DNA of 64,000 nt from Syntrophales bacterium (GTDB lineage: Bacteria; Desulfobacterota; Syntrophia; Syntrophales; PHBD01): NCBI GenBank assembly GCA_963668175.1, contig OY764159.1, forward strand, positions 384,001-448,000, given 5' to 3'. This document shows, piece by piece, positions 10,190-64,000 of this stretch. The position numbers and the translations under genes are program-made. Below the pieces are notes generated by a model, which was not told the DNA's origin, ran no database searches, and worked only from the letters and a program-made list of their open reading frames with translations. How positions within the stretch are numbered: the first letter of the stretch is position 1; every line of letters starts with the position of its first letter.

Positions 10190-10582
10190 ATGATGAAAAT
10201 GAGACGTCGATGTCCGGGAATCGTCTGGATGGGCATTGTCCTGATTTCAGCCTTGCTCCTGGCCGGCCCCGTTACGGCGGTAGCTCATGCCCCAAAGGAA
10301 ATCAAGCTGGAAATGGACAGCGGCATGCAGAATCTGACCGTTACCATTACCCATAAATCGCCTCTCCCCAACTGGCATTACATTAAACTGGTGCAGATCA
10401 CGAAGAACGGTGCCGTCGTCAGTAAAAACGAATACAAGAACCAACCGGACCAAGAAACCTTCGAATACAAGTATCCGCTTGCAGCAACGGCCGGAGACGT
10501 CATCGAAGTGACGGTCACGTGCAACATGTCGGGTTCCAAATCGGCAAAACTGGTTATCAACCAGGCATCCAAGACCCCGTAA
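10190..10582 (+). CDS. Secreted beta-rich protein with a superoxide-reductase-like His/Cys pattern
   Basis: Signal peptide ending AVA|HAP; H33, H55, H63 (HYI), C111 (CNMSG); GGAGGAGG SD. Confidence 0.75.
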   Translation: MMKMRRRCPGIVWMGIVLISALLLAGPVTAVAHAPKEIKLEMDSGMQNLTVTITHKSPLPNWHYIKLVQITKNGAVVSKNEYKNQPDQETFEYKYPLAATAGDVIEVTVTCNMSGSKSAKLVINQASKTP

Positions 10583-11319: not shown

Positions 11320-12609
11320 CTATTTCCGGTAATCGAAGACGCGTTTGGACTTTCTTTCCGTCCTGGGAAGAGCCTGGTAGTCGACGATTTCGACGACGGC
11401 GCTCACCAGAGTTTCTTTTCTGATGTCCCTTTCGAGCTTCTTGGCCGTTGTTGCGTCGGCGGAAACGTCGCCTCCTTCGACACGCTCCACCTTGATCTTC
11501 ATATAATCTTTGCCGTCGGCTTCATGATCCAGATGGATCTGGAATTCGCTGCCGATCCCCTGCTGGCGGGAGAGAATCTCGTCGATGTGGCTCGGGTAGA
11601 TGTTGACGCCCCGGACGATGAACATATCGTCGGACCGGCCGACGATCTTCCCATGCCTGGGCAACGGCGAACCGCAGGGACACTCGCCCGGGATGGCCCG
11701 CGTCAGATCACGGGAACGGTAGCGGACGAGCGGCGCCCCCTCTTTGCGGAGCGTCGTATAGACCATTTCGCCCACTTCGCCCTCGGGAACGGGTTCGAGG
11801 GTGTCGGGATCAAGAATCTCCAGGATATAGTAATCGGCCCAGTAGTGAATCCCCTGGTGATGGATACAGTCCAATCCCGTTCCCGGACCGTAGACTTCCG
11901 TGAGTCCGGGGATATCGAAGGCATGCTCCGCTCCCAGAAGGTCCTTGATCCGTTTCGCCATGGCCTCACTGGTCCGTTCCGCGCCGAAGATGGCCTTCTT
12001 GACCTTGATGGCGTCCCTCATGCCTCTCCTGTCGACTTCCTCGGCCAGCAGAAGGGCCATAGATGCCGTGCAGCAAAGGACAGTCGTTTCAAAATCGACC
12101 AAGAACTGGAGCTGCATGTCTATGTTACCGGGACCGGCGGGTATAGCCAGGGCGCCGAACCGCTCACAGCCGAGCTGAAATCCCACCCCGGCGGTCCATA
12201 CGCCGTAGCCCACGCAGATCTGTACCCGGTCGTCCGGCGACAGGTCGGCAATCTCATAGCACCGGGCAAACATATTCGCCCAGTCGTCGATATCCTTCTG
12301 CGTATAGACCATCACCTTCCGCTTGCCCGTCGTTCCAGATGAGGCGTGGAGCCTGACGATATCCGTGAGAGGGACCGACAGAAGCGGCCAGGGGTAGTCT
12401 GCCTGGAGGTCCTGGGCGGTCACGAACGGCAATTTGCGCAGATCGTCCAGGCTTTTTATGTCTTCCGGTTTTACGCCGGCCTCATCGAATCTTTTCCGAT
12501 AGAACGGCGACCCCTGGTAGGCATGTTTCACCGTCCATTTAAGTCCTTCCAACTGGATGCCGGCGAGTTCGTCACGATTTTTCCAGGCCGGCAAAAACGA
12601 TTTTTTCAT
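11320..12609 (-). CDS. paaK: Phenylacetate-CoA ligase family aryl-CoA ligase
   Basis: HASSGTTG, GLTEVYGPG, YRSRDLT, GRSDDMFIVRGVNIYPS. Confidence 0.9.
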   Translation of the reverse strand: MKKSFLPAWKNRDELAGIQLEGLKWTVKHAYQGSPFYRKRFDEAGVKPEDIKSLDDLRKLPFVTAQDLQADYPWPLLSVPLTDIVRLHASSGTTGKRKVMVYTQKDIDDWANMFARCYEIADLSPDDRVQICVGYGVWTAGVGFQLGCERFGALAIPAGPGNIDMQLQFLVDFETTVLCCTASMALLLAEEVDRRGMRDAIKVKKAIFGAERTSEAMAKRIKDLLGAEHAFDIPGLTEVYGPGTGLDCIHHQGIHYWADYYILEILDPDTLEPVPEGEVGEMVYTTLRKEGAPLVRYRSRDLTRAIPGECPCGSPLPRHGKIVGRSDDMFIVRGVNIYPSHIDEILSRQQGIGSEFQIHLDHEADGKDYMKIKVERVEGGDVSADATTAKKLERDIRKETLVSAVVEIVDYQALPRTERKSKRVFDYRK

Positions 12610-49419: not shown

Positions 49420-50307
49420 TCATAATGTTGCCGAACCGACTTCCTTGAATTTTTCGGAGACGTAATCGGCGATCAGGTTGAATAGAAGCGTCATCATGAA
49501 AAGGACGATACCGGTCGCGAAGAGGGCATGATAATGGCCGCTGCGGAAAGGCGCTTCGCCCATTTCCGCGGCAATGGAGGCCGGCATGGGACGGACGGAA
49601 TCGAAAATACTTTCCGGGATAGCCGCCGCACCTCCTGCAACCATCAGGACCACCATGGTTTCGCCGACAGCCCTTGCCATGCCCAGAATCACTGCGGCGC
49701 ATATGCCTGAAAGCGCCGCAGGCATGACCACCTTGGTGATCGTTTCATGCTTCGTCGCACCAAGGGCGTAGGACGCCTCCTTGAATTCCTGCGACACGGC
49801 ATAGAGGGCGTCCTCCGAAATGCTGGAAATCGTGGGAATCGCCATAAGGGCCAGCACAAGAGAGGCACTGACAATATTCAACCCCGTCGGAAGGTTGAAG
49901 GTATCCTGCAGCCAGGGTGCCAGAACGACCATACCGAAGAATCCCAGCACGACGGACGGCAAACCGGCCAGCAGTTCGATGACGGACTTGAGAATCTCTT
50001 TGAGAAAAGGCGGTGCCAATTCGGATATATAGACCGCCGAAAGGATGCCCAGGGGGATGGCTATAAGAGACGAACAAAATGTCACGGCAAGCGTTCCGAC
50101 GATGAGCGGCCAGATACCGTACGAAGGAGGGTCATAGGTCGGATACCACTCCCGTCCGAAGAGAAAATTGCTGACGGACACTTTCTGGAATATGGGCAAC
50201 CCTTCCTTAAAGAGGAAGATCACGATAAGCCCGAGCAGTAAAAAGGATATCAGCGAGAAGAAAAAGAACAGCTGTTTGATGATGATTTCTTTTTGATGCC
50301 TGGTCAC
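49420..50307 (-). CDS. pstC: Phosphate ABC transporter permease PstC
   Basis: ELLAGLPSVV, KEASYALGATK, RAVGETMVVLM; GTG start. Confidence 0.95.
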   Translation of the reverse strand: MTRHQKEIIIKQLFFFFSLISFLLLGLIVIFLFKEGLPIFQKVSVSNFLFGREWYPTYDPPSYGIWPLIVGTLAVTFCSSLIAIPLGILSAVYISELAPPFLKEILKSVIELLAGLPSVVLGFFGMVVLAPWLQDTFNLPTGLNIVSASLVLALMAIPTISSISEDALYAVSQEFKEASYALGATKHETITKVVMPAALSGICAAVILGMARAVGETMVVLMVAGGAAAIPESIFDSVRPMPASIAAEMGEAPFRSGHYHALFATGIVLFMMTLLFNLIADYVSEKFKEVGSATL

Positions 50308-50548
50308 GGAAACAACCTTCCGAGGATTGATTTATTATCTGCTATCGTGCGGATAGATATCCAAACAAAAGCGTCAATATTTTATCTCCATTTCGAGGAG
50401 GACCCGGTCCTACTATATCATACCCGTACTGCGCTGAAGAGCACAAAGCCGAGCGGCTCGCGGAGCAATACGCAGTGAAAAAAAACTGCGATATCTCTTA
50501 TTGCTTCTTCAACTGCCTTCATATTTCGCATTCACGATACAGGGTATT

Positions 50549-50587
50549 TGTTGCAGTTTTATGAAGGAATGATGAAAAGACTGTTAA
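50549..50587 (-). promoter_or_regulatory. Pho-box array upstream of pstC
   Basis: Minus strand TTAACA-gtctt-TTCATC-attcc-TTCATA-aaact-GCAACA: four units at an 11-nt period, followed by a TG-TATCGT -10-like element. Confidence 0.7.
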
Positions 50588-50602
50588 AGGAACGGCCAAA
50601 GT

Positions 50603-51304
50603 TCAAATCCTGTCGGCAAATTTGTACCCAATGCCGCGGATTGTGAAGACATATTGAGGATTTTCCTTGTCCTTCTCGATTATTGAGCGCAAACGGCTGA
50701 TATGGACGTCGACGGTCCGGGGCTCGACGAAGGCCTCGTCCCCCCATATATAATCCAATAACTGATCGCGGCTGTAGACCCTGCCGGGATGCCGGCTCAG
50801 AAAGATGAGGAGCTTGATCTCGGTAGGCCCCAGGTCCACTTTCCGGTCATGAACATAGACCTCATAGGAATGGTAAAGGATGCGGAGTCCCTTGAACTCG
50901 AAAATTTCCTGCGCCTCTTCCGCATGACGGTTGTCCAGGCGCCTCAACACGGCCCGGATGCGGGCAATCAACTCCTTGACGTTGAACGGCTTCGTTACAT
51001 AGTCGTCGGCACCCATTTCGAGTCCCAGGATCTTGTCCAGATCGTCGTTGCGGGCTGTCAGCATAATGATGGGCAGCCGCTCCGTCTTTTTGTCGCGCCG
51101 AATCGCTTTGCAGACATCGAGTCCCCTGACGCCCGGCAGCATCAGATCCAGGATCACCATGTCCGGCGATTCCGTCCGAACGAGATTGAGGGCCTGTCCC
51201 CCATCGTAGGCTTTGACCGTCGTAAATCCTTCTTTCTCCAGATTATACGCAATAAGATCGACAATATCTTTTTCATCGTCGACAACAAGTATTTTTTTTG
51301 TCAT
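50603..51304 (-). CDS. phoB: Phosphate regulon response regulator (OmpR family)
   Basis: REC domain plus winged helix (RTVDVHISRLR, TIRGIGY); pst context. Confidence 0.9.
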   Translation of the reverse strand: MTKKILVVDDEKDIVDLIAYNLEKEGFTTVKAYDGGQALNLVRTESPDMVILDLMLPGVRGLDVCKAIRRDKKTERLPIIMLTARNDDLDKILGLEMGADDYVTKPFNVKELIARIRAVLRRLDNRHAEEAQEIFEFKGLRILYHSYEVYVHDRKVDLGPTEIKLLIFLSRHPGRVYSRDQLLDYIWGDEAFVEPRTVDVHISRLRSIIEKDKENPQYVFTIRGIGYKFADRI

Positions 51305-51385
51305 GATAGATGTTCAACCGGTTGTTTGAGATAAGTACCGTGTAATGCTCGCCATGCATCCACCCACAAAAGACACCCCGCATCT

Positions 51386-52135
51386 TCACGCGGGACGAGA
51401 TGACATCTCACTCACAATGCGGCTGGATGAAGACAGGATGATCCAGGAACGCATCATGTCCAGGGCCTGCTCATGAAGGTCCGGGCGCCAGGAGCCGACG
51501 GCGTCTTCAGGAACGATGACCCGGTATCCTGCATCGGCGGCACCGATACAGGTCGCCATCACGCAATGATTCGTATACATCCCGGCAACGACAAGGGTAT
51601 CGATTCCGTTCTGCCTCAAAATATGGTCAAGAGCCGATGCATGGAACGCCCCTTGAGCCGTTTTATTCACGACGGGTTCATTGGGCTCCGGCGCCAGTTC
51701 CGGCATCACAGCATAACCGGGGTCCCCGACGGGGACAATGGCGGGGATGCCTAATCTTTCGCGGCATTTTCGATTCCACAGCCGGACGTACGGAACAAGA
51801 TCGCGTCCGTCTTCCGCCAGGGAACCGAAGGCCGTAAAGACCACGAGCGCCCCGGCCGATCGGAAGGCTGCCAGCAACCTCCCAATGACCGCCGCCGCCT
51901 CTTTTCCCTTTCGCACGGCTCCCGCTTCAGCCTCCGGACCATGGATCACGCCGAAATAGCGTGGGAGATTGCCGCGTTCCCCCGCCTGATAGATCTGCAT
52001 ATCCACAACCAGCAGGGCTGTGGCTGCCTTGTTTCCGATCAGCGACTTGCGAGGCATCTCTTCCTGAATCGCGGCGCACCTCCTTTCCCGTCGTCTATTG
52101 CCGTTTTGAATATAGATTTTTTTTTCACAATGCAC
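51386..52135 (-). CDS. Isochorismatase-family cysteine hydrolase; start may be about 25 codons later
   Basis: LLVVDMQ, NKTAQGAF, GMYTNHCV (Asp-Lys-Cys triad). Confidence 0.85.
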   Translation of the reverse strand: MHCEKKIYIQNGNRRRERRCAAIQEEMPRKSLIGNKAATALLVVDMQIYQAGERGNLPRYFGVIHGPEAEAGAVRKGKEAAAVIGRLLAAFRSAGALVVFTAFGSLAEDGRDLVPYVRLWNRKCRERLGIPAIVPVGDPGYAVMPELAPEPNEPVVNKTAQGAFHASALDHILRQNGIDTLVVAGMYTNHCVMATCIGAADAGYRVIVPEDAVGSWRPDLHEQALDMMRSWIILSSSSRIVSEMSSRPA

Positions 52136-52232
52136 AATATCAAATAAGGTGTTGCAGCTCTAGTCCCGCTTGATTATTTCCATGTTTCGTATATATTGAT
52201 TATTATTATCGTTGCAACCCCAGGAAGGCATA

Positions 52233-53393
52233 ATGAACACAGCCGGCCCTAAGAAGGACAAGCCGCTTGACGAATTGGAGGTGCTGATCAGGCGTACTAT
52301 CCACGCCGAAAAGGCAGAGATCGAACGCTTGCGGCTCGAGAATTATCTCAAGGAAAGCGAAGAACGGCTGAGAACCCAATATCGCTTTATTCCCATCCCG
52401 ACGGTGACCTGGCAGAAGAGAAAAGACGATTTTTACCTGGTGGATTACAATATCGCGGAGGAGGAATCGACCGACGGACTGGTTAAAAGCCTGGTCGGAA
52501 AGCCGGCCGCAGAGATTCATCATGATCGGCCCGACATCGTTGCCGATCTGGCCCGTTCTTATCATGAACGTACGGTTGTAAAGCGGGAGAGCCCATATCG
52601 TCTCGTGACGAAAGGATTGGACAAGTTCATTTCCTTCACTTTCGCCTATGCCCCCCCCGATCTCGTCCTCTGCCACATGGAAGACGTCACCCCGCGCAAG
52701 ACGGCCGAAGAAAAATTGCGTAAATCGGAACGGGAACTTAAAGCCCTTTCATCCAAGCTCATGAAGGTGGAAGAAAAAGAGCGGAAGCGGATCGCCAGGG
52801 AGCTCCACGACAGCATCGGACAGTATCTGACGGCCATCAAGTTCAACGCGGAAAATATTCTCACCCGGCTCAAGCTGAAAGACGAAACTACGGCCATCGA
52901 AACACTCACCGCAGGCATTCCGCTCATCCAGCAGACGATCGAAGAGGTCCGGCGGATCATGATGGACCTGCGGCCGACCATCCTGGACGACCTTGGCATC
53001 ATCGCTACGATCTCCTGGTTTTGCAGGGAGTTTCAGGCTGTCTATAATCATGTCCGCCTGGAAAAGCAGATACTGCTCGAAGAGACGCAGGTGCCCGAAC
53101 CGCTTAAAATTATTATATACAGAATCATGCAGGAGGCGATGAACAACGCGGCCAAATACAGCGGGGCCGGCCTGATCAGGATCAGGTTGAAACAGGAAAA
53201 ACTAAGGATAGAATTCGCCATCATGGACAACGGCATCGGCTTCAACGCCGGACGAAGGCATAAGGGGCTGGGCCTTATCAGCATGAGGGAACGCATCGAA
53301 GGATCCGGCGGCAGCATGACGGTTCGGACCAACGCCGGGAAGGGCACTGTCATCCGGGCATCCTGGCCGGCGAACGTCAGGTCCGATTCGTGA
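52233..53393 (+). CDS. Cytoplasmic PAS sensor kinase, HisKA_3 (NarX/UhpB) type
   Basis: ERKRIARELHDSIGQ, QEAMNNAAKY, DNGIGF, GLGLISMRER. Confidence 0.9.
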   Translation: MNTAGPKKDKPLDELEVLIRRTIHAEKAEIERLRLENYLKESEERLRTQYRFIPIPTVTWQKRKDDFYLVDYNIAEEESTDGLVKSLVGKPAAEIHHDRPDIVADLARSYHERTVVKRESPYRLVTKGLDKFISFTFAYAPPDLVLCHMEDVTPRKTAEEKLRKSERELKALSSKLMKVEEKERKRIARELHDSIGQYLTAIKFNAENILTRLKLKDETTAIETLTAGIPLIQQTIEEVRRIMMDLRPTILDDLGIIATISWFCREFQAVYNHVRLEKQILLEETQVPEPLKIIIYRIMQEAMNNAAKYSGAGLIRIRLKQEKLRIEFAIMDNGIGFNAGRRHKGLGLISMRERIEGSGGSMTVRTNAGKGTVIRASWPANVRSDS

Positions 53394-54054
53394 GGAGGCC
53401 CTTCTCCATGGCATAGGCGGTCAGGGCGGAAGCGCTGTGAAGATCCAGCTTCTTCATCAGATGGTCACGATGCTTCTCCACCGTTTTTAAACTGATGCAA
53501 AGATAGTCGGCAATTTCCCGATTTTTGTACCCTTCGGCCACCAATTTGAGAATCTCCCTTTCCCGACTAGTCAAAGAATCCCAGGAAGTTCCGGCCTTCA
53601 CGCCTTTCCTGCCGGCCAGATAACCCTCGATAACCTTTTCGGAAACGGCGGGGCTGAGATAACGTTTGCCAGCAAGGACGTTTTGCACGGCCAGAATGAG
53701 TTCCGCATGGGTGGCGTCCTTCAGGACATAGCCGTCGGCACCGGCTTCGAGGCTTGCGCGGACATATTCCTCCGTTTTGTGGACTGTGAGTACGAGTACT
53801 TTCGTGGCGGGAGACAGCCTCTTGACTTCCCTGATGGCTTCCATCCCGTTCATTCTGGGCATGGAAAGGTCCATCAACATGAGATCGGGGGTTAATTGCC
53901 GGGCATAGCGAATGGCCTCGCGGCCGTCTTCGGCCTCACCGACAACGAGCAGTTCCGGATGGGAAGAGAGCAGCGCCCGCAGGCCCTCCCGAACAATCGT
54001 GTGGTCTTCGACGATGACAATCCTTTTGGATGGATTCGAAGCCTGGTCGTCCAT
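53377..54054 (-). CDS. NarL/LuxR-family response regulator
   Basis: VEDHTIVREG, MDLSMP, LTSREREIL, TVEKHR. Confidence 0.93.
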   Translation of the reverse strand: MDDQASNPSKRIVIVEDHTIVREGLRALLSSHPELLVVGEAEDGREAIRYARQLTPDLMLMDLSMPRMNGMEAIREVKRLSPATKVLVLTVHKTEEYVRASLEAGADGYVLKDATHAELILAVQNVLAGKRYLSPAVSEKVIEGYLAGRKGVKAGTSWDSLTSREREILKLVAEGYKNREIADYLCISLKTVEKHRDHLMKKLDLHSASALTAYAMEKGLLTNRT

Positions 54055-54276
54055 AGTCCCTGCCGACGAATGATCAACCGTATCAAGCCAACCCGGTGAA
54101 CGCCCTATTGTCTATCACGCCTTGGCAGATGAGTAAAGGAAGATCCTCCGGCTGATCTGATCCAAAACTTTTATGACGAACGATCTTTCCGCCTTTTGAT
54201 CGCAGCAAATAAAAAGCTTGCTTTTTTCTTTTCATTCATATAGGCACAAGTTAAAATATAACTAACGGTATTCATC

Positions 54277-54363
54277 ATGTTTTTTAAGAACACGATAAAG
54301 ATGACAAGCTGGTGGTGGCGCAGCGTACATATGGGGAGGTGCGGACTGGACTGCTGCCGTTAA
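54277..54363 (+). CDS. Trp-rich attenuator leader peptide (TrpL-like)
   Basis: MFFKNTIKMTSWWWRSVHMGRCGLDCCR* (or from ATG 54301); three consecutive TGG codons at 54310-54318; stop 23 nt before the terminator. Confidence 0.85.
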   Translation: MFFKNTIKMTSWWWRSVHMGRCGLDCCR

Positions 54364-54386
54364 ATACACGATAAAGAGACGCTTAG

Positions 54387-54423
54387 AAGCCGCGGGCAGT
54401 TAACAGCTCCCGCGGCTTTTTTT
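54387..54423 (+). terminator. Attenuator intrinsic terminator upstream of iorA
   Basis: AAGCCGCGGG-cagttaacagct-CCCGCGGCTT, T-run 54417-54423; 23 nt before the iorA ATG. Confidence 0.9.
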
Positions 54424-54446
54424 ATTCATCCAGGAGAATTGAGGTC

Positions 54447-56282
54447 ATGAACACAGAAGGAGAAAGAATTTTGATGGGCAATGAAGCCATTGGCCGGGGG
54501 CTTCTCGAAAACGGCTGCGGTCTTGTAGCCTCCTATCCGGGTACGCCGGCGTCGGAAATTCTGGCGTCGGCCGTCGACTTTGCCGGGGAGACCAAAACCC
54601 CGATCCATCTCGAATGGTCCGTCAACGAAAAGGTGGCCTTCGAAGTCGCTCTGGCATACAGCTATACGGGGAAACGAGCGGCCGTAGCCATGAAGCAGGT
54701 CGGATTGAATGTGGCATCCGATCCGGTCACGCGTGCCGCCTATCTGGGCACCAAAGGGGGGCTCGTGCTCGTTGTGGCGGACGATCCGGGCCCGCACAGC
54801 TCGCAGACCGAGCAGGACAGCCGCCTGTTTGCCCTTTTCGCGAAAATACCGGTTTTCGATCCCGCCAGTCCGAAAGAGGCAGGCGAGATGGTCAGGGAAG
54901 CCTTCGCCTTATCGGAACGATACGAGATACCCGTCATGCTCCGGCCGACGACACGGGTATGCCACGCCCGTCAAAACGTGCCCTGTACAGCGCCTGAGGC
55001 GTCCAAAAAGAGTGCACGATTCGAGAAAAATGTCAGCCGCTGGGTGGCCACGCCACAATTTCTCCAAACCCTCCATCGCGAACTGAACGAAAAACTCGAT
55101 GCCATCGGAGGCGATACCCTCTTTTATCCGCATCATATCCCGGGGGACGGAACATCGGCCAACGGCTGCATCGTGGCATCGGGCGTTGCCTACGCCCATG
55201 CATTCGATATTATGAATGATATGAGGTTAATCGGCAAGGTCGATCTCTATCAGGTCCGCATGCCCTATCCTCTAAATAAAGCGTTCATTGGCGACGTCCT
55301 GTCACGTTACGAAAAGGTTCTCGTCCTGGAAGAAACCGACGCGGTCATAGAGCTTCAACTGGGCGACCGCAGGATAACGGGCCGGCTATCGGGCCATGTT
55401 CCCCGCCAGGGCGAACTGACGCCGGACGTTGTCGAAGACATCCTGCGCGCTTTTCTTGAGATGCCCGCCGCCGCGGCAGCACCGCAGCCGAAGGCCAAGG
55501 GCAGACGGCCGTCGCTGTGCGCGGGCTGCGGCCATCGGGCGGCTTTCTATGCGATAAAGGAGACATTCCCCGACGGTATCTTCCCCAGCGACATCGGCTG
55601 TTACACCCTGGGCATGAATTTCGGAGCCGTCGATACGTGCCACTGCATGGGGGCCTGCATCAGCCAAGGCGCAGGATTTTATCGCGCTTTTGCACAGGAT
55701 GGCCTCACGATCCCCACGACCGTCGTCACGATCGGCGATTCTACATTCTTCCACGCCGGCATCCCCGGCCTGATCAACGCGGTCATTCAGAGGGCAAGAT
55801 TTATTCTGGTGATCCTCGATAATGGAACGACCGCCATGACGGGTCACCAGCCGACGCCGCAGTCCGGGCGGATGGCCGACGGCCGTCCCGGCAAGCAGGT
55901 CATGATCCCGGAACTGCTCAAGGCCTGCGGTATCGAATTCTTGAAGGAATGTGATGCTTACGATGTCGATCTCCTGAAGGAAAACCTTCGGGACGCCGAC
56001 CGGTTCACTCGCAGCGAGAAGGGCGGTGTCGCCGTCATCATCGCGCGGCATCCCTGTATCGTCGGCAAGGCCGCCAAGAAGGGCCAGCCGGTTTACACGA
56101 TGAGCATCACCGACGACTGTATGGCCTGCAGGGCCTGCATCGATCATTTTGAATGCCCGGCCATCGCCTTCGATGAAGAACAGGAGAAGGCGGTCATCGA
56201 TCAGAATTTCTGTATCGGCTGCGGCGTCTGCCGGCACGTCTGTCCGGTGGAGGCCATTGTGGCGGAAGGAGGAGTCCAGTGA
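54447..56282 (+). CDS. iorA: Indolepyruvate:ferredoxin oxidoreductase alpha subunit
   Basis: YPGTPASEI, WSVNEKVAFE, MKQVGLNVA, SSQTEQDSR, CAGCGHR, DIGCYTLG, GDSTFFHAG..DNGTTAMTG, C-terminal ferredoxin Cys motifs. Confidence 0.95.
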   Translation: MNTEGERILMGNEAIGRGLLENGCGLVASYPGTPASEILASAVDFAGETKTPIHLEWSVNEKVAFEVALAYSYTGKRAAVAMKQVGLNVASDPVTRAAYLGTKGGLVLVVADDPGPHSSQTEQDSRLFALFAKIPVFDPASPKEAGEMVREAFALSERYEIPVMLRPTTRVCHARQNVPCTAPEASKKSARFEKNVSRWVATPQFLQTLHRELNEKLDAIGGDTLFYPHHIPGDGTSANGCIVASGVAYAHAFDIMNDMRLIGKVDLYQVRMPYPLNKAFIGDVLSRYEKVLVLEETDAVIELQLGDRRITGRLSGHVPRQGELTPDVVEDILRAFLEMPAAAAAPQPKAKGRRPSLCAGCGHRAAFYAIKETFPDGIFPSDIGCYTLGMNFGAVDTCHCMGACISQGAGFYRAFAQDGLTIPTTVVTIGDSTFFHAGIPGLINAVIQRARFILVILDNGTTAMTGHQPTPQSGRMADGRPGKQVMIPELLKACGIEFLKECDAYDVDLLKENLRDADRFTRSEKGGVAVIIARHPCIVGKAAKKGQPVYTMSITDDCMACRACIDHFECPAIAFDEEQEKAVIDQNFCIGCGVCRHVCPVEAIVAEGGVQ

Positions 56283-56791
56283 ATCAACAGATCGTTATCA
56301 GCGGTATCGGAGGCCAGGGTGTCCTTTTTCTGACCCGGATTATTGCGGAAGCAGCCATGGAAAAAGGGTTGCCCGTCCTGACGTCGGAAACGCACGGCAT
56401 GGCCATGCGAGGCGGCACGGTCATTTCACATGTAAAGATCGGTCCTTTTCACAGTCCTCTCATTCGCGCCGCCCAGGCTGATATCGGTTTCTTTCTCAAT
56501 GAAGCCAACCTGGACGTTCACCGGGGTTTCCTGAAGCCGGAAGGGCTGCTGTTCATCAATACACCGAAGCCGGGAGACTACCTGCACGTGGACGCCACGC
56601 GGATTGCCAAGGAAAACGGTTTCCTGGTCATCACGAATTTGGTCCTTCTCGGATTCGCCGTAAGCAGGGGCGGCCTCTTCTGCGATGCCGGCCTCGCGGA
56701 GAACGTTATCCGCAAGCTTTCTCCGGACAACCAGGTCGAATCCAACCTGCGGGGTTTTTCCCTGGGGGTTGCCGCAGGAAAAACCAATTAG
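56279..56791 (+). CDS. iorB: Indolepyruvate:ferredoxin oxidoreductase beta subunit
   Basis: GIGGQGV, SETHGMAMRGGTV..HV; GTG start overlaps the iorA stop. Confidence 0.92.
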   Translation: MNQQIVISGIGGQGVLFLTRIIAEAAMEKGLPVLTSETHGMAMRGGTVISHVKIGPFHSPLIRAAQADIGFFLNEANLDVHRGFLKPEGLLFINTPKPGDYLHVDATRIAKENGFLVITNLVLLGFAVSRGGLFCDAGLAENVIRKLSPDNQVESNLRGFSLGVAAGKTN

Positions 56792-56825
56792 AAATGGTCT
56801 ACGAAGAACCGACTGGAGGTCACAT

Positions 56826-57854
56826 ATGAAGGCATTGAGAATCATAAGCGGTATCTTGCTGGCCGTCATCTTTCTGTTTATCGCGGCTCCCTCTCCGTCG
56901 TCAGCCGCGGGCCCCATCAAGCTCACCTATGCAAACTTTCCCCCGGCACCGACGTTTCCCTGCGTCCAGATGGAACGCTGGGCCCGGGAAGCGGAAAAGC
57001 GCACGAACGGCCAGGTCAAGATCCAGACATTTCCGGGCGGGACGCTGCTGCCGGCCAAGAATATTTTTGACGGCGTCATTGCCGGCACCGCCGATATCGG
57101 CAACTTTGCCATGAGCTATCAGCCGGGACGTTTTCCCGTGTCGGAAGCCGTCGATCTGCCGCTCGGATTTGCAAGCGCCCGCGTAGCGAGTCTCGTTCTC
57201 TATGACATAATTGAAAAATACAGACCGAAGGAATTCGAAAAGGTCAAGGTCCTGACCGTCTTCACCTGCCCGCCGGCCGACCTGATGACAAGCAAACCGG
57301 TCAGAACCCTTGCAGATTTAAAGGGCATGGAACTTCGCTCGTCGGGCACCGGCGTCGAGGTGATCAAGGCCTTGGGCGGCATACCCATCGCCATGCCCCA
57401 GTCGGACACGCCTGAGGCGATCCAGAAGGGCATCGTCAAGGGCGTTGTTTCTTCCCTCGAAGTTTTGAAGGACCTGAATTACGCAGCTTACACCCCTTAT
57501 GCGACCGATGCCAACCTCTTCGTCGTCACCTTTGCGGTGGTCATGAACCGGGACAAATGGAATGCGCTGCCCGCCGACGTCAAAAAGACACTGGAGGCCC
57601 TGGGAAGGGAGCAGGCCGAATGGACGGGCAAATATGTCGACGGCCATGTCAAGGAAGCCCTCGCCTGGTCCAAACAGAAATACAACCACCAGCTCCTGCA
57701 GCTTTCAGCGAAAGACAAGGCGGAAATAGCTGCCCGTGTCAAGCCGATGATCGACGGCTACATCAAGAGGGTCAACGGCCAGGGGATACAAGGCGCACAA
57801 ATCATAGCCGATATCCAGTCTCTGAAACGCAAATACGAAAAAACGTCCCGATAG
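56826..57854 (+). CDS. dctP: TRAP transporter substrate-binding protein
   Basis: Signal peptide, TNGQVKIQTFPGGTL, ADLKGMELR (carboxylate-binding Arg), MNRDKWNALP; GGAGG SD. Confidence 0.92.
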   Translation: MKALRIISGILLAVIFLFIAAPSPSSAAGPIKLTYANFPPAPTFPCVQMERWAREAEKRTNGQVKIQTFPGGTLLPAKNIFDGVIAGTADIGNFAMSYQPGRFPVSEAVDLPLGFASARVASLVLYDIIEKYRPKEFEKVKVLTVFTCPPADLMTSKPVRTLADLKGMELRSSGTGVEVIKALGGIPIAMPQSDTPEAIQKGIVKGVVSSLEVLKDLNYAAYTPYATDANLFVVTFAVVMNRDKWNALPADVKKTLEALGREQAEWTGKYVDGHVKEALAWSKQKYNHQLLQLSAKDKAEIAARVKPMIDGYIKRVNGQGIQGAQIIADIQSLKRKYEKTSR

Positions 57855-57887
57855 CCAGCAAACGGAATCACCGGCAAGGAAAACATT

Positions 57888-58445
57888 ATGCATATTCTCG
57901 AAAGAATCAATTTGTACCTTAACCGTTATCTGCTCATGATCGGCGGCATCGCCGTCCTGGCCCTCATGGCCCTGGCCACGGGAAACGTCGTCCTTCGCCT
58001 TTTCCAAATGCCTTACGCGGGAACCTATGAATTCGTGTCGTTTCTCGGTGCGATCGTCACGGCTTCGGCCCTCGGCTATACGCAACTGAAAGGGGACCAC
58101 ATCATCGTCGATATCCTGTCGGATCACTTTCCCGGACCGCTGAAGAGCATCGCCGACGCCCTCTCCTCCTTTATCAGCGCCATTTTCTTCACCATCGTGT
58201 CCTGGCAGATGTTTGTCTGGGGCATGAAGCTCGCGGAATCGGGAGAGCTTTCCGAAACGCTCAAGGTGGTCTATCACCCCTATGTGTACTGCGTCGCGGT
58301 GGGTTTTGCCACACTGTCCCTAACTTGTGCGATCGACGTCATGGCCATATTGCGGAAACGCGCTCAGGTGCCCGCCGGTACAGAATCAGCGATACAGCAA
58401 TCCGGTTTGGGCTTCAGTGAAAGCCCCAGGGAGGAACGGTCATGA
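57888..58445 (+). CDS. dctQ: TRAP transporter small permease
   Basis: Four TM helices, NVVLR, HIIVD. Confidence 0.9.
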   Translation: MHILERINLYLNRYLLMIGGIAVLALMALATGNVVLRLFQMPYAGTYEFVSFLGAIVTASALGYTQLKGDHIIVDILSDHFPGPLKSIADALSSFISAIFFTIVSWQMFVWGMKLAESGELSETLKVVYHPYVYCVAVGFATLSLTCAIDVMAILRKRAQVPAGTESAIQQSGLGFSESPREERS

Positions 58446-59749
58446 GCGAATCCATGGTAGGCGTTATCGGCATCCTGGTCATGTTTGCCACCTTGTTTTT
58501 CCTGAGGATACCGGCCGGCTTTACCATGGCCGTCGTCGGCTTTTTCGGAATTGCCTACGTGACATCCTTCCAGGCCGCCTTCGGCATGATCGGCTCCGAG
58601 ATGTGGAGTATCTTCTCCAACTACGGCCTGACGGTTATTCCGATGTTCATTCTGGTCGGCGAAATCGTGCATTACGCCGGCTACAATGACAGCCTCTATC
58701 ATGCCACCCACCGGTGGTTCGGACATTTCCGCGGGGGCCTGGCCATTACGACGATCATGGCTTCGGCGGCGTTTTCCGCCATCAGCGGCTCCAACACGGC
58801 CACGGCGGCAACCATGAGCAAAGTGGCCATCCCGGCCATGAAGAAATACAACTACCACCCCATCCTGAATGCAGGTTCCGTTGCTGCAGGAGCCACGCTG
58901 GGCGTTCTGATCCCGCCCAGTATCGTCCTCGTCGTTTACGGCCTCTATACGGGGCAGTCCATCGGCAAGCTATTCTTCGGCAACGTCATCCCCAGCGCAA
59001 TTCTCACCGTTTTGATTGCTGCGACCGTCTTTGCCATTTGCGCCCGTCATCCCGATTGGGGACCGGCAGCGGAGAAAAGCACCTGGAAGGAAAGGTTCAA
59101 GGCCCTCCCGGAAGCACTGGACATATTAGTCCTTTTTATCATTATCATGTATGCCCTCTTTACGGGCGTCGTTACGGCGACGGAAGCGGCAGCCCTCAGC
59201 TGCACCCTGGCGCTGATCATCAGCCTGGCCCGCCGGAAGCTCACCTGGGCGGCCTTTCTGTCGTCCATCGAAGATACACTTCGCATCTCCTGCCTGATCT
59301 TCATGATTATCGCCGGGGCCGTTATCTTCGGAAGATTTTTGACGATATCCCGTCTGCCTTATGAGGTCGCATCCTGGATCGGGTCCCTGGCCATGCCCAA
59401 CTGGCTGCTTCTGTCCGTCATCCTCTGCTGCTACATCGTCGGCGGCTGCATCATGGACGCCCTTGCTTTTCTCCTCATATCCCTGCCCATATTCTATCCG
59501 ATCGTGATCGGTATGGGGTACGACCCGATCTGGTTCGGACAGATCATCACGATTGTTACGACCATGGGCTCCATCATGCCGCCCATTGGAATATGCTGCT
59601 ATGTCGTCCACGGCATGGCAAAGGACATTCCCCTGGCCACCGTCTTTCGCGGCGGGTTCTACTACATCCCGTCCTACATCATCGCCATCATCCTGTTGAT
59701 GCTTTCGCCCTATTGGACGGTCTTGGTTTTGTCGGACCTGGTTAAATAG
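58442..59749 (+). CDS. dctM: TRAP transporter large permease
   Basis: VIPMFIL, AISGSNTATA, LIPPSI, TATEAAA, MPPIG. Confidence 0.93.
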   Translation: MSESMVGVIGILVMFATLFFLRIPAGFTMAVVGFFGIAYVTSFQAAFGMIGSEMWSIFSNYGLTVIPMFILVGEIVHYAGYNDSLYHATHRWFGHFRGGLAITTIMASAAFSAISGSNTATAATMSKVAIPAMKKYNYHPILNAGSVAAGATLGVLIPPSIVLVVYGLYTGQSIGKLFFGNVIPSAILTVLIAATVFAICARHPDWGPAAEKSTWKERFKALPEALDILVLFIIIMYALFTGVVTATEAAALSCTLALIISLARRKLTWAAFLSSIEDTLRISCLIFMIIAGAVIFGRFLTISRLPYEVASWIGSLAMPNWLLLSVILCCYIVGGCIMDALAFLLISLPIFYPIVIGMGYDPIWFGQIITIVTTMGSIMPPIGICCYVVHGMAKDIPLATVFRGGFYYIPSYIIAIILLMLSPYWTVLVLSDLVK

Positions 59750-59847
59750 ATCACGTGACGCGCCGACCGACATATAAGGGTTGATCCATTATCGCTTATT
59801 TGATACATGATTGTATCATTGAGTCATTTTCAACTCGAAGGACGGCC

Positions 59848-60192
59848 ATGAACGATCTACTGGAAAGCCGGGATGAAGAGATTGTGGGCGATATGCACCG
59901 GGCGGCGCAGACGATTGTGGAATTCACGGTAGGCGTCAGTTTCGAGCAGTTTATCAGCGACCGGAAACTGCAATTTGCCCTGGAGAGGTTGATCGACATC
60001 ATCGGGCAGGATGCCGTGAATGTATCGGAGGCTTTTCGCAGCCACTATGCCGATATATCCTGGCAGACGTTGATGACGCTCCGTCACGTTCTGGCCATGG
60101 AGGATGGGGCCAAGCAGGAACGCATGTGGGATCTCGTCTCCGTGCAGATACCGGAACTCGCGGCAGAACTGGAATCATTGGCGCCTTACTGA
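59848..60192 (+). CDS. HepT/DUF86-like HEPN protein with a degenerate catalytic motif
   Basis: QFALERLIDIIGQ...ISWQ..LRHVLAM fits the DUF86 pattern, but Rx4H is changed to Rx4M. Confidence 0.75.
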   Translation: MNDLLESRDEEIVGDMHRAAQTIVEFTVGVSFEQFISDRKLQFALERLIDIIGQDAVNVSEAFRSHYADISWQTLMTLRHVLAMEDGAKQERMWDLVSVQIPELAAELESLAPY

Positions 60193-60249
60193 TCTTAAAC
60201 CCTAAAACGGCTGCACCCCATCCACCTGAATAACACCCTCGTCAGAATA

Positions 60250-61566
60250 TTATTTATCCGAAGATAAGGGGACGGAGGGTCTTACGGTCTTCATCGTCTC
60301 GTCCAGCCAATCAAGGATTCTTTCATTGGATAAGACGCCGGCACCGACCTGGCAGTGATCTTCAGCCGCATCCTCCGCGGTAAACATCAGGAACGTCTTG
60401 GGAGACGTCAATGCATTAAAAAATTGCTTTGACTGTCCCGGCATATCGGCATCCTTCTCGGAATCCACGACCAGGACGGGACAGCGGATCTTGCCGATGG
60501 CATCATTCATGTGATAGGAGCGCGTCATCCGGAGCCATTCGCTGGGTGTCCTGGCGCCGAAGGTGAACATGCCGTTGGCCATGGCCCAGCGCGCCGCCGG
60601 ATCCTTCTTCATCATGCCGTAGGCCACGCGGTCGAATACCTTGGCCATGGCGGAATCGTCCAGCATCTTTTCCGGTACCCCCTTGGCATTCTTCATGATG
60701 ACGGCATGGAAGTCGTATACGCCGCCGTTGACGATCAAGGCTTTGATCCGCGGCTCAAAGGCGGCAGCCCGCGGCGCCAGGTAGCCGCCGAAGCTGATGC
60801 CGTAAAGAGCGATCCTCTCCGCATCCACCTCGGGCAGTAGCCCGGCATAGTCGAGGACCGGTGTCAGAACTGTTTCCCAGTTGCTGCGAAAGGGGATTTT
60901 CTGTTCGCGGATGACCCTGCCCTGGCCTGGCCCTTCGAAGATCAGGCAGTTGTAGCCGCGTTCCAGGGCGGCAACCGCCGCCTGGAAATAGAGTTCCTCC
61001 GCCGTCCCGTCGAAACCCGTCTGAATCAACAGCAGAGGCCTTTTGATCCTCGAATCGTCCACCAGACAGAGGTATCCCGGCAGAGACTTCCCTTCGAAGG
61101 GAATCTCCACCGGCCGGATGGGGGTGACGGACAGTCTGGCTCCCTTGATGAAGCATTCCCGGCTCTTCCCCCAACTTCCCAGAATCCGCGGATCGCCGGG
61201 ATTCGTGTGGAGGAAGATTTCCGCCGTCCGGTAATAATTGGCGGCCCGGAAATATTCTTTCTTCGCGCTTAAGAGGCGGCCCTGCGAGAGGAAACGCTCA
61301 GCCGTCTTTTCCCGCAATTCCGCCGCGGCGTACCACTCCCGGTACCAGCTGTTGTCGTCGCCTTCCTTGATGCGATAAATGGTCTTCAAACATTCGCCGA
61401 TATCTGCTCCGCCGTAGACGGCCGAAGACATGGTTCGAAGGGCCTGATTGGCATACAGGGGCTCTTTGAAGTGAAACTTCACCGCCCCGGCTTCGTCACT
61501 TACAGCGAGCATGAAGACTAACACCCCGGTCATACAAATGTATCGAATCGCGCTATTTCCCATCAT
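60250..61566 (-). CDS. Exported alpha/beta hydrolase (FrsA / dihydroxypseudooxynicotine-hydrolase-like)
   Basis: Signal peptide, TGFDGTAEE, EGPGQG, GISFG nucleophile, AEDHCQ; AAGGAG SD before ATG 61566. Confidence 0.87.
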   Translation of the reverse strand: MMGNSAIRYICMTGVLVFMLAVSDEAGAVKFHFKEPLYANQALRTMSSAVYGGADIGECLKTIYRIKEGDDNSWYREWYAAAELREKTAERFLSQGRLLSAKKEYFRAANYYRTAEIFLHTNPGDPRILGSWGKSRECFIKGARLSVTPIRPVEIPFEGKSLPGYLCLVDDSRIKRPLLLIQTGFDGTAEELYFQAAVAALERGYNCLIFEGPGQGRVIREQKIPFRSNWETVLTPVLDYAGLLPEVDAERIALYGISFGGYLAPRAAAFEPRIKALIVNGGVYDFHAVIMKNAKGVPEKMLDDSAMAKVFDRVAYGMMKKDPAARWAMANGMFTFGARTPSEWLRMTRSYHMNDAIGKIRCPVLVVDSEKDADMPGQSKQFFNALTSPKTFLMFTAEDAAEDHCQVGAGVLSNERILDWLDETMKTVRPSVPLSSDK

Positions 61567-61658
61567 ACTCCTTCCCTGTCCCATCATGGATGACACGGAC
61601 GCCTGCTGCAGATATCGGTCAACCCGTTCTTTTTGTGGAAATATCACACCGTAAGCAT

Positions 61659-61687
61659 TTGACAAAGTGCTTTCTTTTTCCTATACA
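61659..61687 (+). promoter_or_regulatory. Sigma-70 promoter; predicted start site at or near the ATG (leaderless)
   Basis: TTGACA-17 bp-TATACA, then 7 nt to ATG 61695, no SD. Confidence 0.65.
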
Positions 61688-61694
61688 CATATTC

Positions 61695-63278
61695 ATGAAA
61701 TCACGTGCCGTACCTGTTCTGGTCGGGGCAGCCCAATACACACAGCATAAAAACGATCGGGGACTTCTGGACCCCCTGGGTCTTATGGTGCAGGCAGGCA
61801 GGCAGGCCCTCGCAGACACCGGTGCAAGCGGGGTGAAATCCCTCATCGATACGGTCTGTGTGGTCAACAGCTTTTCCCGGGACGATGACCGGCTGCCTTC
61901 GTTGCTCGGCAAGGCTCTGGGCATCGAGGCCCGGGATCATATCTATTACCTGATCGGCGGCAATACGCCGCAGTTGCTCGTGAACCGATTCTCCCGCGAT
62001 ATTGCCGCCGGCCGCAGAAGCGGGGTACTGATCACCGGCGCGGAGGCCATCTACGCGATGTACAAAGCCTCCCGCAACGGCCTGGATGAGAATTGGGCGG
62101 ACAACCCGACCTTCAGGCAGGTTACGGCAAACGGACACCCGGTCAATTTCGATACCCTGCTGCACCTCGGCTGCGATCGGGAAAAGCAACTTCTGGGTGA
62201 TGATTACGATGAACCGAACAACAAGATCGAGACGGCCTATGATCTCTTTATGCCCCAGTACATGTACCCATTCTTCGAGACGGCCCTGCGCAATGCTTCC
62301 GGCCGCACCCCTGCGGAACATTTGGACCATTTAGGATGCTGTTACGAACGTATGTCCGCCGTCGCCGCCGGAAACCCGTATGCCTGGAGCCGACAGCGGC
62401 TGCACGGACAGGACATCGCCGTCGCAACGTCCGGAAATCGCTATGTGGTCTATCCCTATACGATCCGGATGGTCGCCAACATCAACGTCGACCAGGCAGC
62501 CGCCCTGATCATGACCGGTGAGCAGGACGCCCGGATCTCGGGGATCGAAGAGAATCGTCTGGTCTATCCCATGGGGGGTGCCGAGTTCAGCAATATCTGG
62601 CATGTATCACGCCGGTCCTGTCTTTACGATTCGCCGGCCATCACGGAGGCCGTTCGCCTATCGCTTAAACAGGCCGGGCTTTCGCTCTCCGATATCGATT
62701 TCTTCGATCTCTACAGTTGTTTCCCGTCGGCGGTGGAGATCGCCCGCCGGGCCGTTGGCATACCGGAAGGCGACCCCCGCGATCTATCCCTCACGGGAGG
62801 TCTCTCCTATTTTGGCGGGCCGGGCAATAACTATTCGCTCCATGCGATTGCCGCCGCCGTGGAGCGGGTCCGTCGGGACCGCCGTTTGAAGGCCATGATT
62901 ACCGCCAACGGCTGGTACAACTCGAAACATGCCGTCGGCATCTACGGCGCCGTCCCTCCCGACAATGCGTGGGAAGACGCCGATCATACCGCCATCCAGA
63001 AGTCCATCAGGGAAACGGCGCTACCGGAACCCGTTGAACGGGCGGACGGATCTCTGACGATCGAGGCCTTTTCGACGAGGTACGATACGGAAGGCCGACC
63101 GGAACGGACCACGGTGATCGGTAAATTGCGGAACGGCAGGAGGGCGTTGGCGGATATTCAGTCGAACGACGCGGAATTGGCAAGACTGATGGAGATCGAA
63201 TTGGTCGGAAAGACCGGAACGGTCCGGTACGATCCATTTTCAGGCCGCAACCGGCTCACCATTGCGCCGGCAAGTTAG
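61695..63278 (+). CDS. Non-canonical thiolase-like protein with an extra C-terminal domain
   Basis: GGNTPQ, NVDQAAALI, DLYSCFP, LTGGLSYFGGPGNNYSLH. Confidence 0.85.
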   Translation: MKSRAVPVLVGAAQYTQHKNDRGLLDPLGLMVQAGRQALADTGASGVKSLIDTVCVVNSFSRDDDRLPSLLGKALGIEARDHIYYLIGGNTPQLLVNRFSRDIAAGRRSGVLITGAEAIYAMYKASRNGLDENWADNPTFRQVTANGHPVNFDTLLHLGCDREKQLLGDDYDEPNNKIETAYDLFMPQYMYPFFETALRNASGRTPAEHLDHLGCCYERMSAVAAGNPYAWSRQRLHGQDIAVATSGNRYVVYPYTIRMVANINVDQAAALIMTGEQDARISGIEENRLVYPMGGAEFSNIWHVSRRSCLYDSPAITEAVRLSLKQAGLSLSDIDFFDLYSCFPSAVEIARRAVGIPEGDPRDLSLTGGLSYFGGPGNNYSLHAIAAAVERVRRDRRLKAMITANGWYNSKHAVGIYGAVPPDNAWEDADHTAIQKSIRETALPEPVERADGSLTIEAFSTRYDTEGRPERTTVIGKLRNGRRALADIQSNDAELARLMEIELVGKTGTVRYDPFSGRNRLTIAPAS

Positions 63279-63424
63279 TACGCGACCGGAACGCCGGCGC
63301 TGAAAAGCCTTGAGATATCCGACACCCGGAGCGGAAGCACGGCAATAACTTCTGAAATTCACGCCTTGCGATCGCTTTGCAGTTTTCCTTGACACCGGTA
63401 ATTTTTCCATCCTATACGGCGGCC

Positions 63425-63826
63425 ATGAAAAAATATGACGTTCCTCAGGATGAGATCCCCATCTTTCACGGCGAAAAGAAGGTGCTGTATGCCGTGGACG
63501 AAACCGGCCGTTACGCCGCAGTCCAAAGCAGCGGTTGGGACGTGGAGAGGGTAGTCCTGGAGCAGGCCCTGGACGACTACGAGCAAAAGGCGGAGGCGGC
63601 AAAGCGGCGAATCAAAGACGGCGAAAGTTCCCCTCTCGAATATTTCATGTACAAGCGCCGGATGGACAGCCGGGTCCTGGCCCAAGCGACGGGCTTTGCG
63701 GGCTGGCGGGTCAAAAGGCACTTAAAGCCTGAACATTTCAATAAACTTAAAGATTCTACCATGCAGGAATACGCCCGGGTCCTCCAGGTTAGTCCCGATG
63801 TCCTGAAGCGTTTTGACGGAGCTTGA
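63425..63826 (+). CDS. Conserved hypothetical protein of a type I associate with dialkylresorcinol/flexirubin-type clusters
   Basis: DVPQD..LYAVDETGRY..SSGW..SPLEYFM..MD..LAQATG..WRVKRHLKP; family assignment is from recall; upstream TTGACA-18-TATACG. Confidence 0.7.
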   Translation: MKKYDVPQDEIPIFHGEKKVLYAVDETGRYAAVQSSGWDVERVVLEQALDDYEQKAEAAKRRIKDGESSPLEYFMYKRRMDSRVLAQATGFAGWRVKRHLKPEHFNKLKDSTMQEYARVLQVSPDVLKRFDGA

Positions 63827-63829
63827 CCT

Positions 63830-64000
63830 TTGGACACGGAGCCCTCATTTGTACACAGACAGGCGGCCCACTGCGAAAGCGGCGTCGTCTCGTCCCTCCT
63901 CAGGAACCGCGGCCTGGACCTGTCGGAAGCCATGGTATTCGGGCTTTCGAGCGCCCTCATGTTTTCCTACCTGCCTTTCGTGAAAATCAACGGCATGCCC
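63830..64000 (+). CDS. BtrH N-terminal-domain (papain-like) protein; 5' part only
   Basis: Manually translated from TTG: MDTEPSFVHRQAAHCESGVVSSLLRNRGLDLSEAMVFGL...YLPF; HCE motif. Confidence 0.75.
   Translation, partial: MDTEPSFVHRQAAHCESGVVSSLLRNRGLDLSEAMVFGLSSALMFSYLPFVKINGMP

Follow-up and report, generated by a model that had tools for sequence, protein, structure and literature searches.

An iorAB-dctPQM operon in a Syntrophales bacterium

We analyzed a 64,000-nucleotide stretch of DNA from a Syntrophales bacterium (GenBank assembly GCA_963668175.1, contig OY764159.1), referred to here as the window, which spans positions 384001 to 448000 of the single contig (C1) of a 4.57-Mb genome. 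The window contains five genes, iorA, iorB, dctP, dctQ, and dctM, that are arranged head to tail on the forward strand and are preceded by an element with the anatomy of a tryptophan (Trp) leader-peptide attenuator (Table 1). The products of iorA and iorB fall in the indolepyruvate:ferredoxin oxidoreductase (IOR) family, and the dct genes are predicted to encode a tripartite ATP-independent periplasmic (TRAP) transporter. iorA and iorB overlap by 4 nt, as do dctQ and dctM, and the two remaining intergenic gaps measure 34 nt (iorB-dctP) and 33 nt (dctP-dctQ). The first-pass annotation of this DNA had described the five genes as tightly linked behind a Trp attenuator, a description borne out by gene scans, the spacing, folding of the leader, and a scan of the whole genome.

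In scans of protein families, the best matches of the iorA and iorB products were by far the IOR models. IorA matched the IOR alpha-subunit model TIGR03336 with an E value of 6.4e-189 (629.1 bits) and contains the Pfam domains POR_N and TPP_enzyme_C and a C-terminal 2x[4Fe-4S] ferredoxin-type region. IorB matched PF01558, of the POR gamma type. A search for solved relatives of IorA returned only ferredoxin-domain and distant 2-oxoacid oxidoreductase matches and no close structure. IorA is also only 34% identical to its paralogs in the same genome. One of these belongs to a second IorAB-type pair at C1:1518404-1526346 (locus L123), which lies in a string of genes encoding an acyl-CoA dehydrogenase, an FrhB-like protein, a major facilitator superfamily transporter, and a rhodanese-domain pyridine-nucleotide disulfide oxidoreductase; a third pair is found at C1:2845032-2847402.

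The three TRAP components (P, Q, and M) are encoded together and appear to be ordinary DctP, DctQ, and DctM proteins. The dctP open reading frame (ORF) spans positions 56685 to 57854, with the ATG at 56826 as the likely start, giving a protein of 342 amino acids with a hydrophobic, signal-like N terminus. DctP matched PF03480 (E value, 3.5e-41), and DctM scored 276.9 bits against TIGR00786, for which the cut-off is 268.45. The nearest relatives of DctP are labeled Syntrophales, Syntrophaceae, and Smithella.

TABLE 1 Features of the iorAB-dctPQM locus and the candidate ligase gene (positions in the window)
Feature	Position	Strand	Description
PaaK-like aryl-acetate-coenzyme A (CoA) ligase gene	11320-12609	-	Divergent; candidate indoleacetate-CoA ligase; 42 kb upstream of the operon
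Promoter candidate	54229-54257	+	Sigma-70-like, TTTTCA-17-TAAAAT; 20 nt before leader ATG
Leader peptide ORF	54277-54363	+	28 codons, MFFKNTIKMTSWWWRSVHMGRCGLDCCR; three tandem Trp codons at 54310-54318
Segment 1:2 hairpin	54307-54361	+	-20.2 kcal/mol, upstream part folded alone; holds the Trp codons
Antiterminator candidate	54344-54401	+	Segment 2 paired with terminator 5' arm; -11.8 kcal/mol
Intrinsic terminator	54389-54423	+	Stem-loop at 54389-54416, -19.4 kcal/mol, plus U7 at 54417-54423
iorA	54447-56282	+	Alpha subunit, IOR family; 611 amino acids; ATG at 54447
iorB	56279-56791	+	Beta subunit, short form, 170 amino acids; GTG start overlaps iorA stop
dctP	56826-57854	+	TRAP solute-binding protein; predicted member of indole-acid-binding cluster
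dctQ	57888-58445	+	TRAP small membrane subunit; PF04290
dctM	58442-59749	+	TRAP large permease subunit; PF06808

The leader of iorA resembles that of the trp operon

By its predicted anatomy, the element before iorA is a Trp leader-peptide attenuator. The stop codon of the leader ORF (54361-54363) terminates the 1:2 hairpin and lies within segment 2. In a fold with a ribosome covering the Trp codons and the 3' arm still unmade, the candidate antiterminator takes up 11 of the 13 nt in the 5' arm of the terminator. The candidate promoter is a consensus match only, agreeing at 9 of 12 positions, and the region contains 7 such sites where 4.1 are expected. No Rfam family matched positions 50000 to 64000 at an E value of ≤1; the curated Rfam Trp-leader model was presumably built from enterobacterial leaders.

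Such a leader would couple transcription of the operon to the supply of Trp. If charged tRNA-Trp were scarce, a ribosome would stall on the three Trp codons, segment 2 would sequester the terminator 5' arm by base pairing, and transcription would continue into iorAB-dctPQM. With ample Trp, the ribosome would get to the leader stop codon in segment 2, allowing the terminator to form, and transcription would stop at position 54423.

The genome contains a complete trpEGDCFBA operon, the completeness of which the first-pass annotation had singled out for checking, as well as genes for chorismate synthase and 3-deoxy-D-arabino-heptulosonate 7-phosphate synthase. The trpE leader (MIQVMSSIGSWWWRKSREGFVRC) is of the same kind as the iorA leader; it has its own antiterminator and terminator, and the two leader peptides have a WWW-R motif in common. 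Short ORFs encoding WWW occur seven times on both strands of the 4.57-Mb genome, and a T-run follows in two of the seven. When the whole genome was scanned for tandem Trp codons combined with a hairpin-plus-T6 filter, only the iorA and trpE leaders passed. Because the iorA leader is of the same type as the leader of the organism's own trp operon, expression of iorAB-dctPQM should rise when charged tRNA-Trp is scarce. And because the organism is predicted to be a Trp prototroph, a salvage route for Trp would supplement de novo synthesis and not replace it.

The Trp leader recurs before ior and TRAP genes in one clade of relatives

We collected 120 related loci, comprising 80 close loci that were fetched with DctP and 40 more distant ones from a phylum-wide search. 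Leaders were looked for in the 76 of the 80 close loci that have at least 150 nt 5' of the first gene. A leader with a run of Trp codons was found in 12 of 13 loci in which iorAB come first and at least 150 nt of upstream sequence is available, the exception being L030. The WWW-R motif of the window leader is likewise shared with these 12 relatives. It was also found in three loci in which dctP comes first (L025, L076, and L052). The earlier suggestion that induction by Trp shortage fits anabolism thus gains weight, since the leader is of the trpE type and its association with iorAB appears to be conserved.

We folded 16 leaders: that of the window, the organism's own trp leader, and 14 from relatives. 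Our script found a terminator in 15; it missed the one in L011, which has an interrupted U-run. In all 15, an alternative fold sequesters 7 to 11 nt of the terminator 5' arm. Among the 11 leaders that were aligned, 5 of the 11 consensus terminator-stem pairs show compensatory changes in which both sides are altered with pairing kept. In a tree of 121 DctP rows built by a quick method, 15 of the 16 leader-bearing DctPs, including that of the window, fall within one 19-row clade (support, 81), and a 13-row subclade inside it contains the window DctP. The remaining four rows of the larger clade are L005, L072, and L018, which have no testable upstream sequence, and L030.

An Rfam search of 11 related loci yielded a single match that passed its gathering score, an unrelated c-di-GMP-I riboswitch; therefore, no T-box or other known RNA precedes the leaderless relatives in this set. 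The riboswitch, at positions 10301 to 10399 (+) of L013, scored 46.7 bits against a gathering score of 35 and lies downstream of the L013 dctPQM genes.

DctP falls in a cluster of indole-acid-binding proteins

The nearest solved protein to DctP is Desal_3247 (4n6d; E value, 6e-115; Z score, 42.9; 51 to 53% identity), with a root mean square deviation of 1.6 Å over 312 residues. Dde_0634 (4nap, 4pgn, and 4pgp) follows with an E value of about 5e-96 and a Z score of 40.0; the Z scores for these two proteins come from comparisons spanning 306 to 312 residues. Both are Desulfovibrio proteins that come from the Enzyme Function Initiative. The next solved protein after this cluster has an E value of 4.5e-33, and the further solved neighbors, at 22 to 28% identity, are all binders of aromatic carboxylates, coumarate, cinnamate, and 4-hydroxyphenylacetate among them. 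As judged by these sequence and structure comparisons, DctP is a predicted member of the Dde_0634/Desal_3247 cluster, which is set apart from other solute-binding protein clusters. 4PGP and 4PGN reportedly hold indole acetate and indole pyruvate. R171 of DctP (counted from the ATG at 56826) sits in the sequence DLKGMELR, shows conservation of at least 90% across 27 members of the family, and aligns with an Arg in both 4n6d and 4pgn; judged by the alignment offset, it may be the equivalent of the carboxylate-binding Arg of SiaP.

Excerpts of two papers cite Dde_0634 as a solute-binding protein for indole-3-acetate (IAA) (PMC9543091, PMC9973260), and an excerpt of a review counts "indole acids" among the TRAP ligands newly identified in the Enzyme Function Initiative screen (PMC5812351). 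According to these excerpts, the experimental assignment was made by Vetting et al. in 2015. The ligand class is therefore known for this TRAP family as a whole, and the prediction that the window DctP binds an indole acid follows from its place in that family. Of two claims in the first-pass annotation, import of IAA or another indole acid by this TRAP system is in keeping with the family's inclusion of a cited IAA binder, whereas the idea that the locus would give the family its first ligand falls away, as the 2015 work had already done so.

A PaaK-like CoA ligase accompanies the transporter in relatives

Neither a ligase nor an aminotransferase is encoded in the operon, as the first-pass annotation had noted, but a candidate ligase gene is nevertheless present elsewhere in the window. 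Its product is 78%, 75%, and 63% identical to the ligases encoded beside the TRAP or ior genes of L004, L025, and L049, respectively, compared with at most 44% for the organism's other PaaK-type paralogs. Against the PaaK model TIGR02155, it scored 403 bits (cut-off, 646). In 46 of the 120 loci (27 of the 80 close and 19 of the 40 distant loci), an ortholog is encoded no more than about 6 kb from the TRAP genes, making this ligase the commonest neighbor of the TRAP family. Its position varies. The gene order is leader-dctPQM-ligase-iorA in L025 and dctPQM-iorAB-ligase in L042, L049, and L073; in L004 and L011, the ligase gene is followed by leader-iorAB-dctPQM. Because a CoA ligase would be useful for IAA and not for a 2-oxo acid, this association favors IAA over indolepyruvate as the imported compound.

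The genome as a whole encodes three IorA-type proteins and four full-length PaaK-type proteins, plus two weaker PaaK matches. One of the PaaK paralogs is near-canonical (633 bits against the cut-off of 646) and is paired with an ACT-domain protein at C1:506800-508612 (L125, 5800-7612, minus strand). Orthologs of this pair in L076 lie directly 5' of a WWWW leader and dctPQM.

A candidate aminotransferase was suggested by L025, where a gene for a class I/II aminotransferase precedes the leader. Its ortholog in the window's genome (C1:1959194-1960381) is 72% identical; the specificity of these proteins is not readable from sequence.

The transporter is found with two alternative sets of downstream enzymes

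An iorA gene (at least 45% identity) lies beside the TRAP genes in 30 of the 120 loci, 13 of which have a Trp leader. Another 46 loci instead have at least one marker resembling the anaerobic IAA degradation (iaa) genes of Aromatoleum, and 34 of these have two or more; L036, L047, L051, L060, L061, L063, L074, L075, and L080 are examples. The two sets were never found together (0 of 120 loci): no iaa-like marker occurs in the 30 iorA loci, and neither iorAB nor a Trp leader occurs in the 46 iaa-like loci. Two loci have a Trp leader without iorA in the flank.

The iaa-like set near the TRAP genes consists of a B12-dependent mutase, a family III CoA-transferase, acyl-CoA dehydrogenases with electron transfer flavoprotein, and the same PaaK-like ligase. 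Often, genes for subunits of a molybdenum hydroxylase and for hydantoinase A/B are present as well; hydantoinase and molybdenum enzymes reportedly also belong to the Aromatoleum iaa cluster. The mutase, CoA-transferase, dehydrogenase, and ligase correspond to enzymes of the anaerobic IAA pathway as given in excerpts of PMC8360864. From these gene contexts, a single module for uptake and activation seems to feed either degradation or IorAB, with a Trp sensor only on the IorAB form.

A proposed route from indole-3-acetate to tryptophan

Taken together, the leader, the transporter family, and the recurring gene contexts suggest that the operon probably serves the salvage of IAA to Trp and is induced by Trp starvation. 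In the proposed route, DctPQM would import IAA from the surroundings, and the PaaK-like ligase encoded elsewhere in the window would convert it to indoleacetyl-CoA. IorAB, working reductively with CO2 and reduced ferredoxin, would then form indole-3-pyruvate, from which a general aminotransferase would produce Trp. The computations show what the genes encode, how the attenuator is built and conserved, to which family DctP belongs, and that TRAP, ligase, and IOR genes keep company in relatives. We infer which ligand this DctP takes, what the ligase and IorAB act on, in which direction IorAB works, which aminotransferase takes part, and that the operon is induced. Anabolic use of IOR with aryl acids has a precedent in Methanococcus maripaludis (Porat et al. 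2004, as cited in an excerpt of PMC4162585).

Several observations weigh against this proposal. With respect to the leader, the antiterminator is weaker than the terminator (-11.8 versus -19.4 kcal/mol), and in an equilibrium fold of the whole leader the terminator is still favored even with the Trp codons masked; the alternative fold appears only if the terminator 3' arm is withheld. The switch must therefore depend on cotranscriptional kinetics. A terminator that wins at equilibrium is usual for attenuator switches. By eye, no obvious Shine-Dalgarno sequence precedes the leader ATG. A Trp leader was found in none of the 40 more distant loci, and 42 of the 120 loci have neither iorA, iaa-like markers, nor a leader. 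With respect to the proteins, IorA and IorB score below the curated equivalog cut-offs (629.1 versus 650.9 bits for IorA; 184.8 versus 227 bits against NF004916 for IorB), and DctP is only 45 to 46% identical to the IAA-binding Dde_0634. The ligase gene has no Trp leader, lies 42 kb from the operon, and is outside the control of the attenuator. No aminotransferase gene is linked to the operon in this genome, and the L025 aminotransferase is best matched to alanine or LL-diaminopimelate-type transaminases, below their cut-offs. IOR is documented mainly in the oxidative direction, and no sequence motifs predict the use of indolepyruvate (PMC12873857). Finally, the enzymes of Trp synthesis are depleted in Trp (0 to 0.49%, versus 0.83% for a proteome proxy), but the TRAP subunits are not (2.07% in DctM), and the value for IorA, 0.33%, is much the same as that for its paralog IorA3, 0.34%. 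The Trp content of the operon proteins supports neither side and carries no mark of a starvation enzyme.

We considered three other explanations. TRAP might import ready-made indole-3-pyruvate or indole-3-lactate, which would lead to Trp directly, with IorAB not carboxylating but balancing or draining the arylpyruvate pool or serving another aryl acid. The operon's lack of a ligase and an aminotransferase would fit this explanation, as would the attenuator, whose logic suits any uptake route to Trp. Dde_0634 was reportedly crystallized with indole pyruvate as well, which would also fit. However, oxidation of indolepyruvate during Trp shortage would waste the precursor, yet iorA is the first gene behind the attenuator. 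Direct import would also leave without a use the PaaK-like ligase that so often neighbors the TRAP genes and that in L025 is encoded between dctM and iorA, and the catabolic contexts of the TRAP family likewise begin from the CoA thioester of IAA. We regard direct import as unlikely.

A broader salvage of aryl acids, in which phenylacetate and 4-hydroxyphenylacetate would yield Phe and Tyr alongside Trp from IAA and the Trp leader would report one of several demands, seems quite improbable to us. IOR enzymes and PaaK-type ligases commonly take several aryl substrates. In keeping with this habit, 2-oxoacid:ferredoxin oxidoreductases have shown mixed aromatic preferences in assays (PMC12873857). 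Phenyl-type acids are the ligands of the solved proteins next closest to DctP, and the number of IorA- and PaaK-type genes in the genome could suit a wide substrate range, although these other paralogs could equally serve Phe and Tyr. The leaders, on the other hand, are enriched for Trp codons only, with no Phe- or Tyr-rich leader among the upstream ORFs listed, and IAA is, according to the excerpts quoted above, the ligand of the nearest solved protein for which one is cited.

The least likely explanation is that arylpyruvates or Trp-derived acids are imported and oxidized via IorAB for energy and that the leader either is no Trp sensor or works in the opposite sense. We consider it very improbable, given that the trp operon has a leader of the same design. 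In its favor, an oxidative role of IOR is documented for gut acetogens and fermenters of peptides (PMC12873857), aromatic acids are degraded by Syntrophales and related bacteria, and catabolic-looking clusters elsewhere contain TRAP genes of this family. Those clusters, however, have neither iorAB nor the leader, and the leader anatomy, found just twice in this genome, is a design that switches genes on when Trp is scarce.

Relation to known systems

The salvage route proposed here combines parts of known kinds: a trpL-type attenuator, an IOR, an indole-acid-binding TRAP protein, and the assimilation of aryl acids. The window leader shares with trpL-type attenuators its short reading frame, in which Trp codons stand in tandem, and its three predicted structures, namely, the 1:2 hairpin, the 2:3 antiterminator, and the 3:4 terminator with its U-run; unlike the trpL of a trp operon, it would govern an operon for uptake and an oxidoreductase and not the trp biosynthetic genes. 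DctP shares the DctP-type fold and family with Dde_0634 and Desal_3247 of Desulfovibrio but falls in a Syntrophales clade, and its gene follows iorAB and the Trp attenuator. The proposed chemistry is that of the M. maripaludis route, insofar as the excerpted source describes it, in which an aryl acid is converted to its CoA thioester, reductively carboxylated by IOR, and transaminated. The present system, as predicted from its genes, differs in having a bacterial host with a complete trp operon, a dedicated high-affinity importer in the IOR operon, and a Trp-specific attenuator.

In Aromatoleum aromaticum, the iaa genes encode a ligase (IaaB), a CoA-transferase (IaaL), a mutase (IaaGH), a dehydrogenase (IaaF), and a binding protein (IaaM), again as given in excerpts of PMC8360864. 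The likeness to that system lies in binding-protein-dependent uptake and in activation of IAA to its CoA thioester by a dedicated ligase, and for the TRAP clusters of the relatives it consists of the same enzyme families, as judged by description. The window operon differs from the iaa cluster in that it has no downstream catabolic genes and instead has iorAB and a starvation-type control.

In the literature searched, which leaves most subscription journals outside its coverage, we found no description of a link between a Trp attenuator and ior or TRAP genes, nor of a bacterial importer and regulation for a rumen-type pathway from IAA to Trp. A paper by Rodionov et al. (2004; PMC545781), considered as an earlier account of Trp attenuators with ior genes, was rejected because the relevant terms occur zero times in it. 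What is apparently new, in that we did not find it in print, is the joining of the importer to a Trp-attenuated IOR, an arrangement restricted to a single clade of Syntrophales and contrasting with the catabolic clusters that have the same importer.

If the proposed route is correct, the rebuilding of Trp from IAA under starvation would give anaerobic communities a concrete instance of cross-feeding. Anaerobic fermentation of Trp commonly ends in IAA, no amino acid costs more to make than Trp, and syntrophs live near the thermodynamic limit. The attenuator would also supply what homology cannot, namely, the physiological (anabolic) direction of a reversible 2-oxoacid:ferredoxin oxidoreductase. 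Allison and Robinson reportedly found in 1967 that rumen anaerobes convert IAA to Trp; the transporter, ligase, and IOR described here would be a candidate gene set for that pathway, which is said to have been known biochemically in rumen bacteria since the 1960s.

A wider model, to which we give even chances, is that in anaerobic Thermodesulfobacteriota an IAA front end (TRAP plus the divergent PaaK-like ligase) is joined to either of two mutually exclusive back ends: iaa-like degradation or, in a Syntrophaceae/Smithellaceae clade, a Trp-attenuated IorAB acting as an "indolepyruvate synthase." Members of methanogenic consortia would then be cross-fed with IAA from fermenters as a precursor of Trp, and Trp attenuation in these bacteria would control exactly two operons, one for de novo synthesis and one for salvage.

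Neighboring genes and other features of the window

Downstream of dctM lie a HepT-like ORF and then a convergent hydrolase gene. The HepT-like ribonuclease ORF (59848-60192, plus strand; PF01934, E value, 1.7e-11) follows directly after dctM, and no nucleotidyltransferase partner is evident beside it. Upstream, a gene for a LuxR/NarL-type response regulator (53377-54054, minus strand) points away from the leader promoter, and a histidine kinase gene of the HisKA_3 type (52212-53393, plus strand) converges on the regulator gene. The best NCBIfam matches of this pair are MctR and MctS, below the cut-offs. We considered the pair (52212-54054) as a possible part of the system and rejected it, as the annotated flanks of 20 relatives contained no such pair. 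One weak hairpin of terminator-like form, accompanied by a T-run, lies at 56732-56749 (plus strand), within the 3' end of iorB; it probably arose by chance, since the region has 3 such sites and 6.3 are expected. Farther upstream, positions 49420 to 51304 (minus strand) encode unrelated phosphate uptake and regulation proteins, among them PstC, which scored 309 bits against TIGR02138, and a response regulator resembling PhoB.

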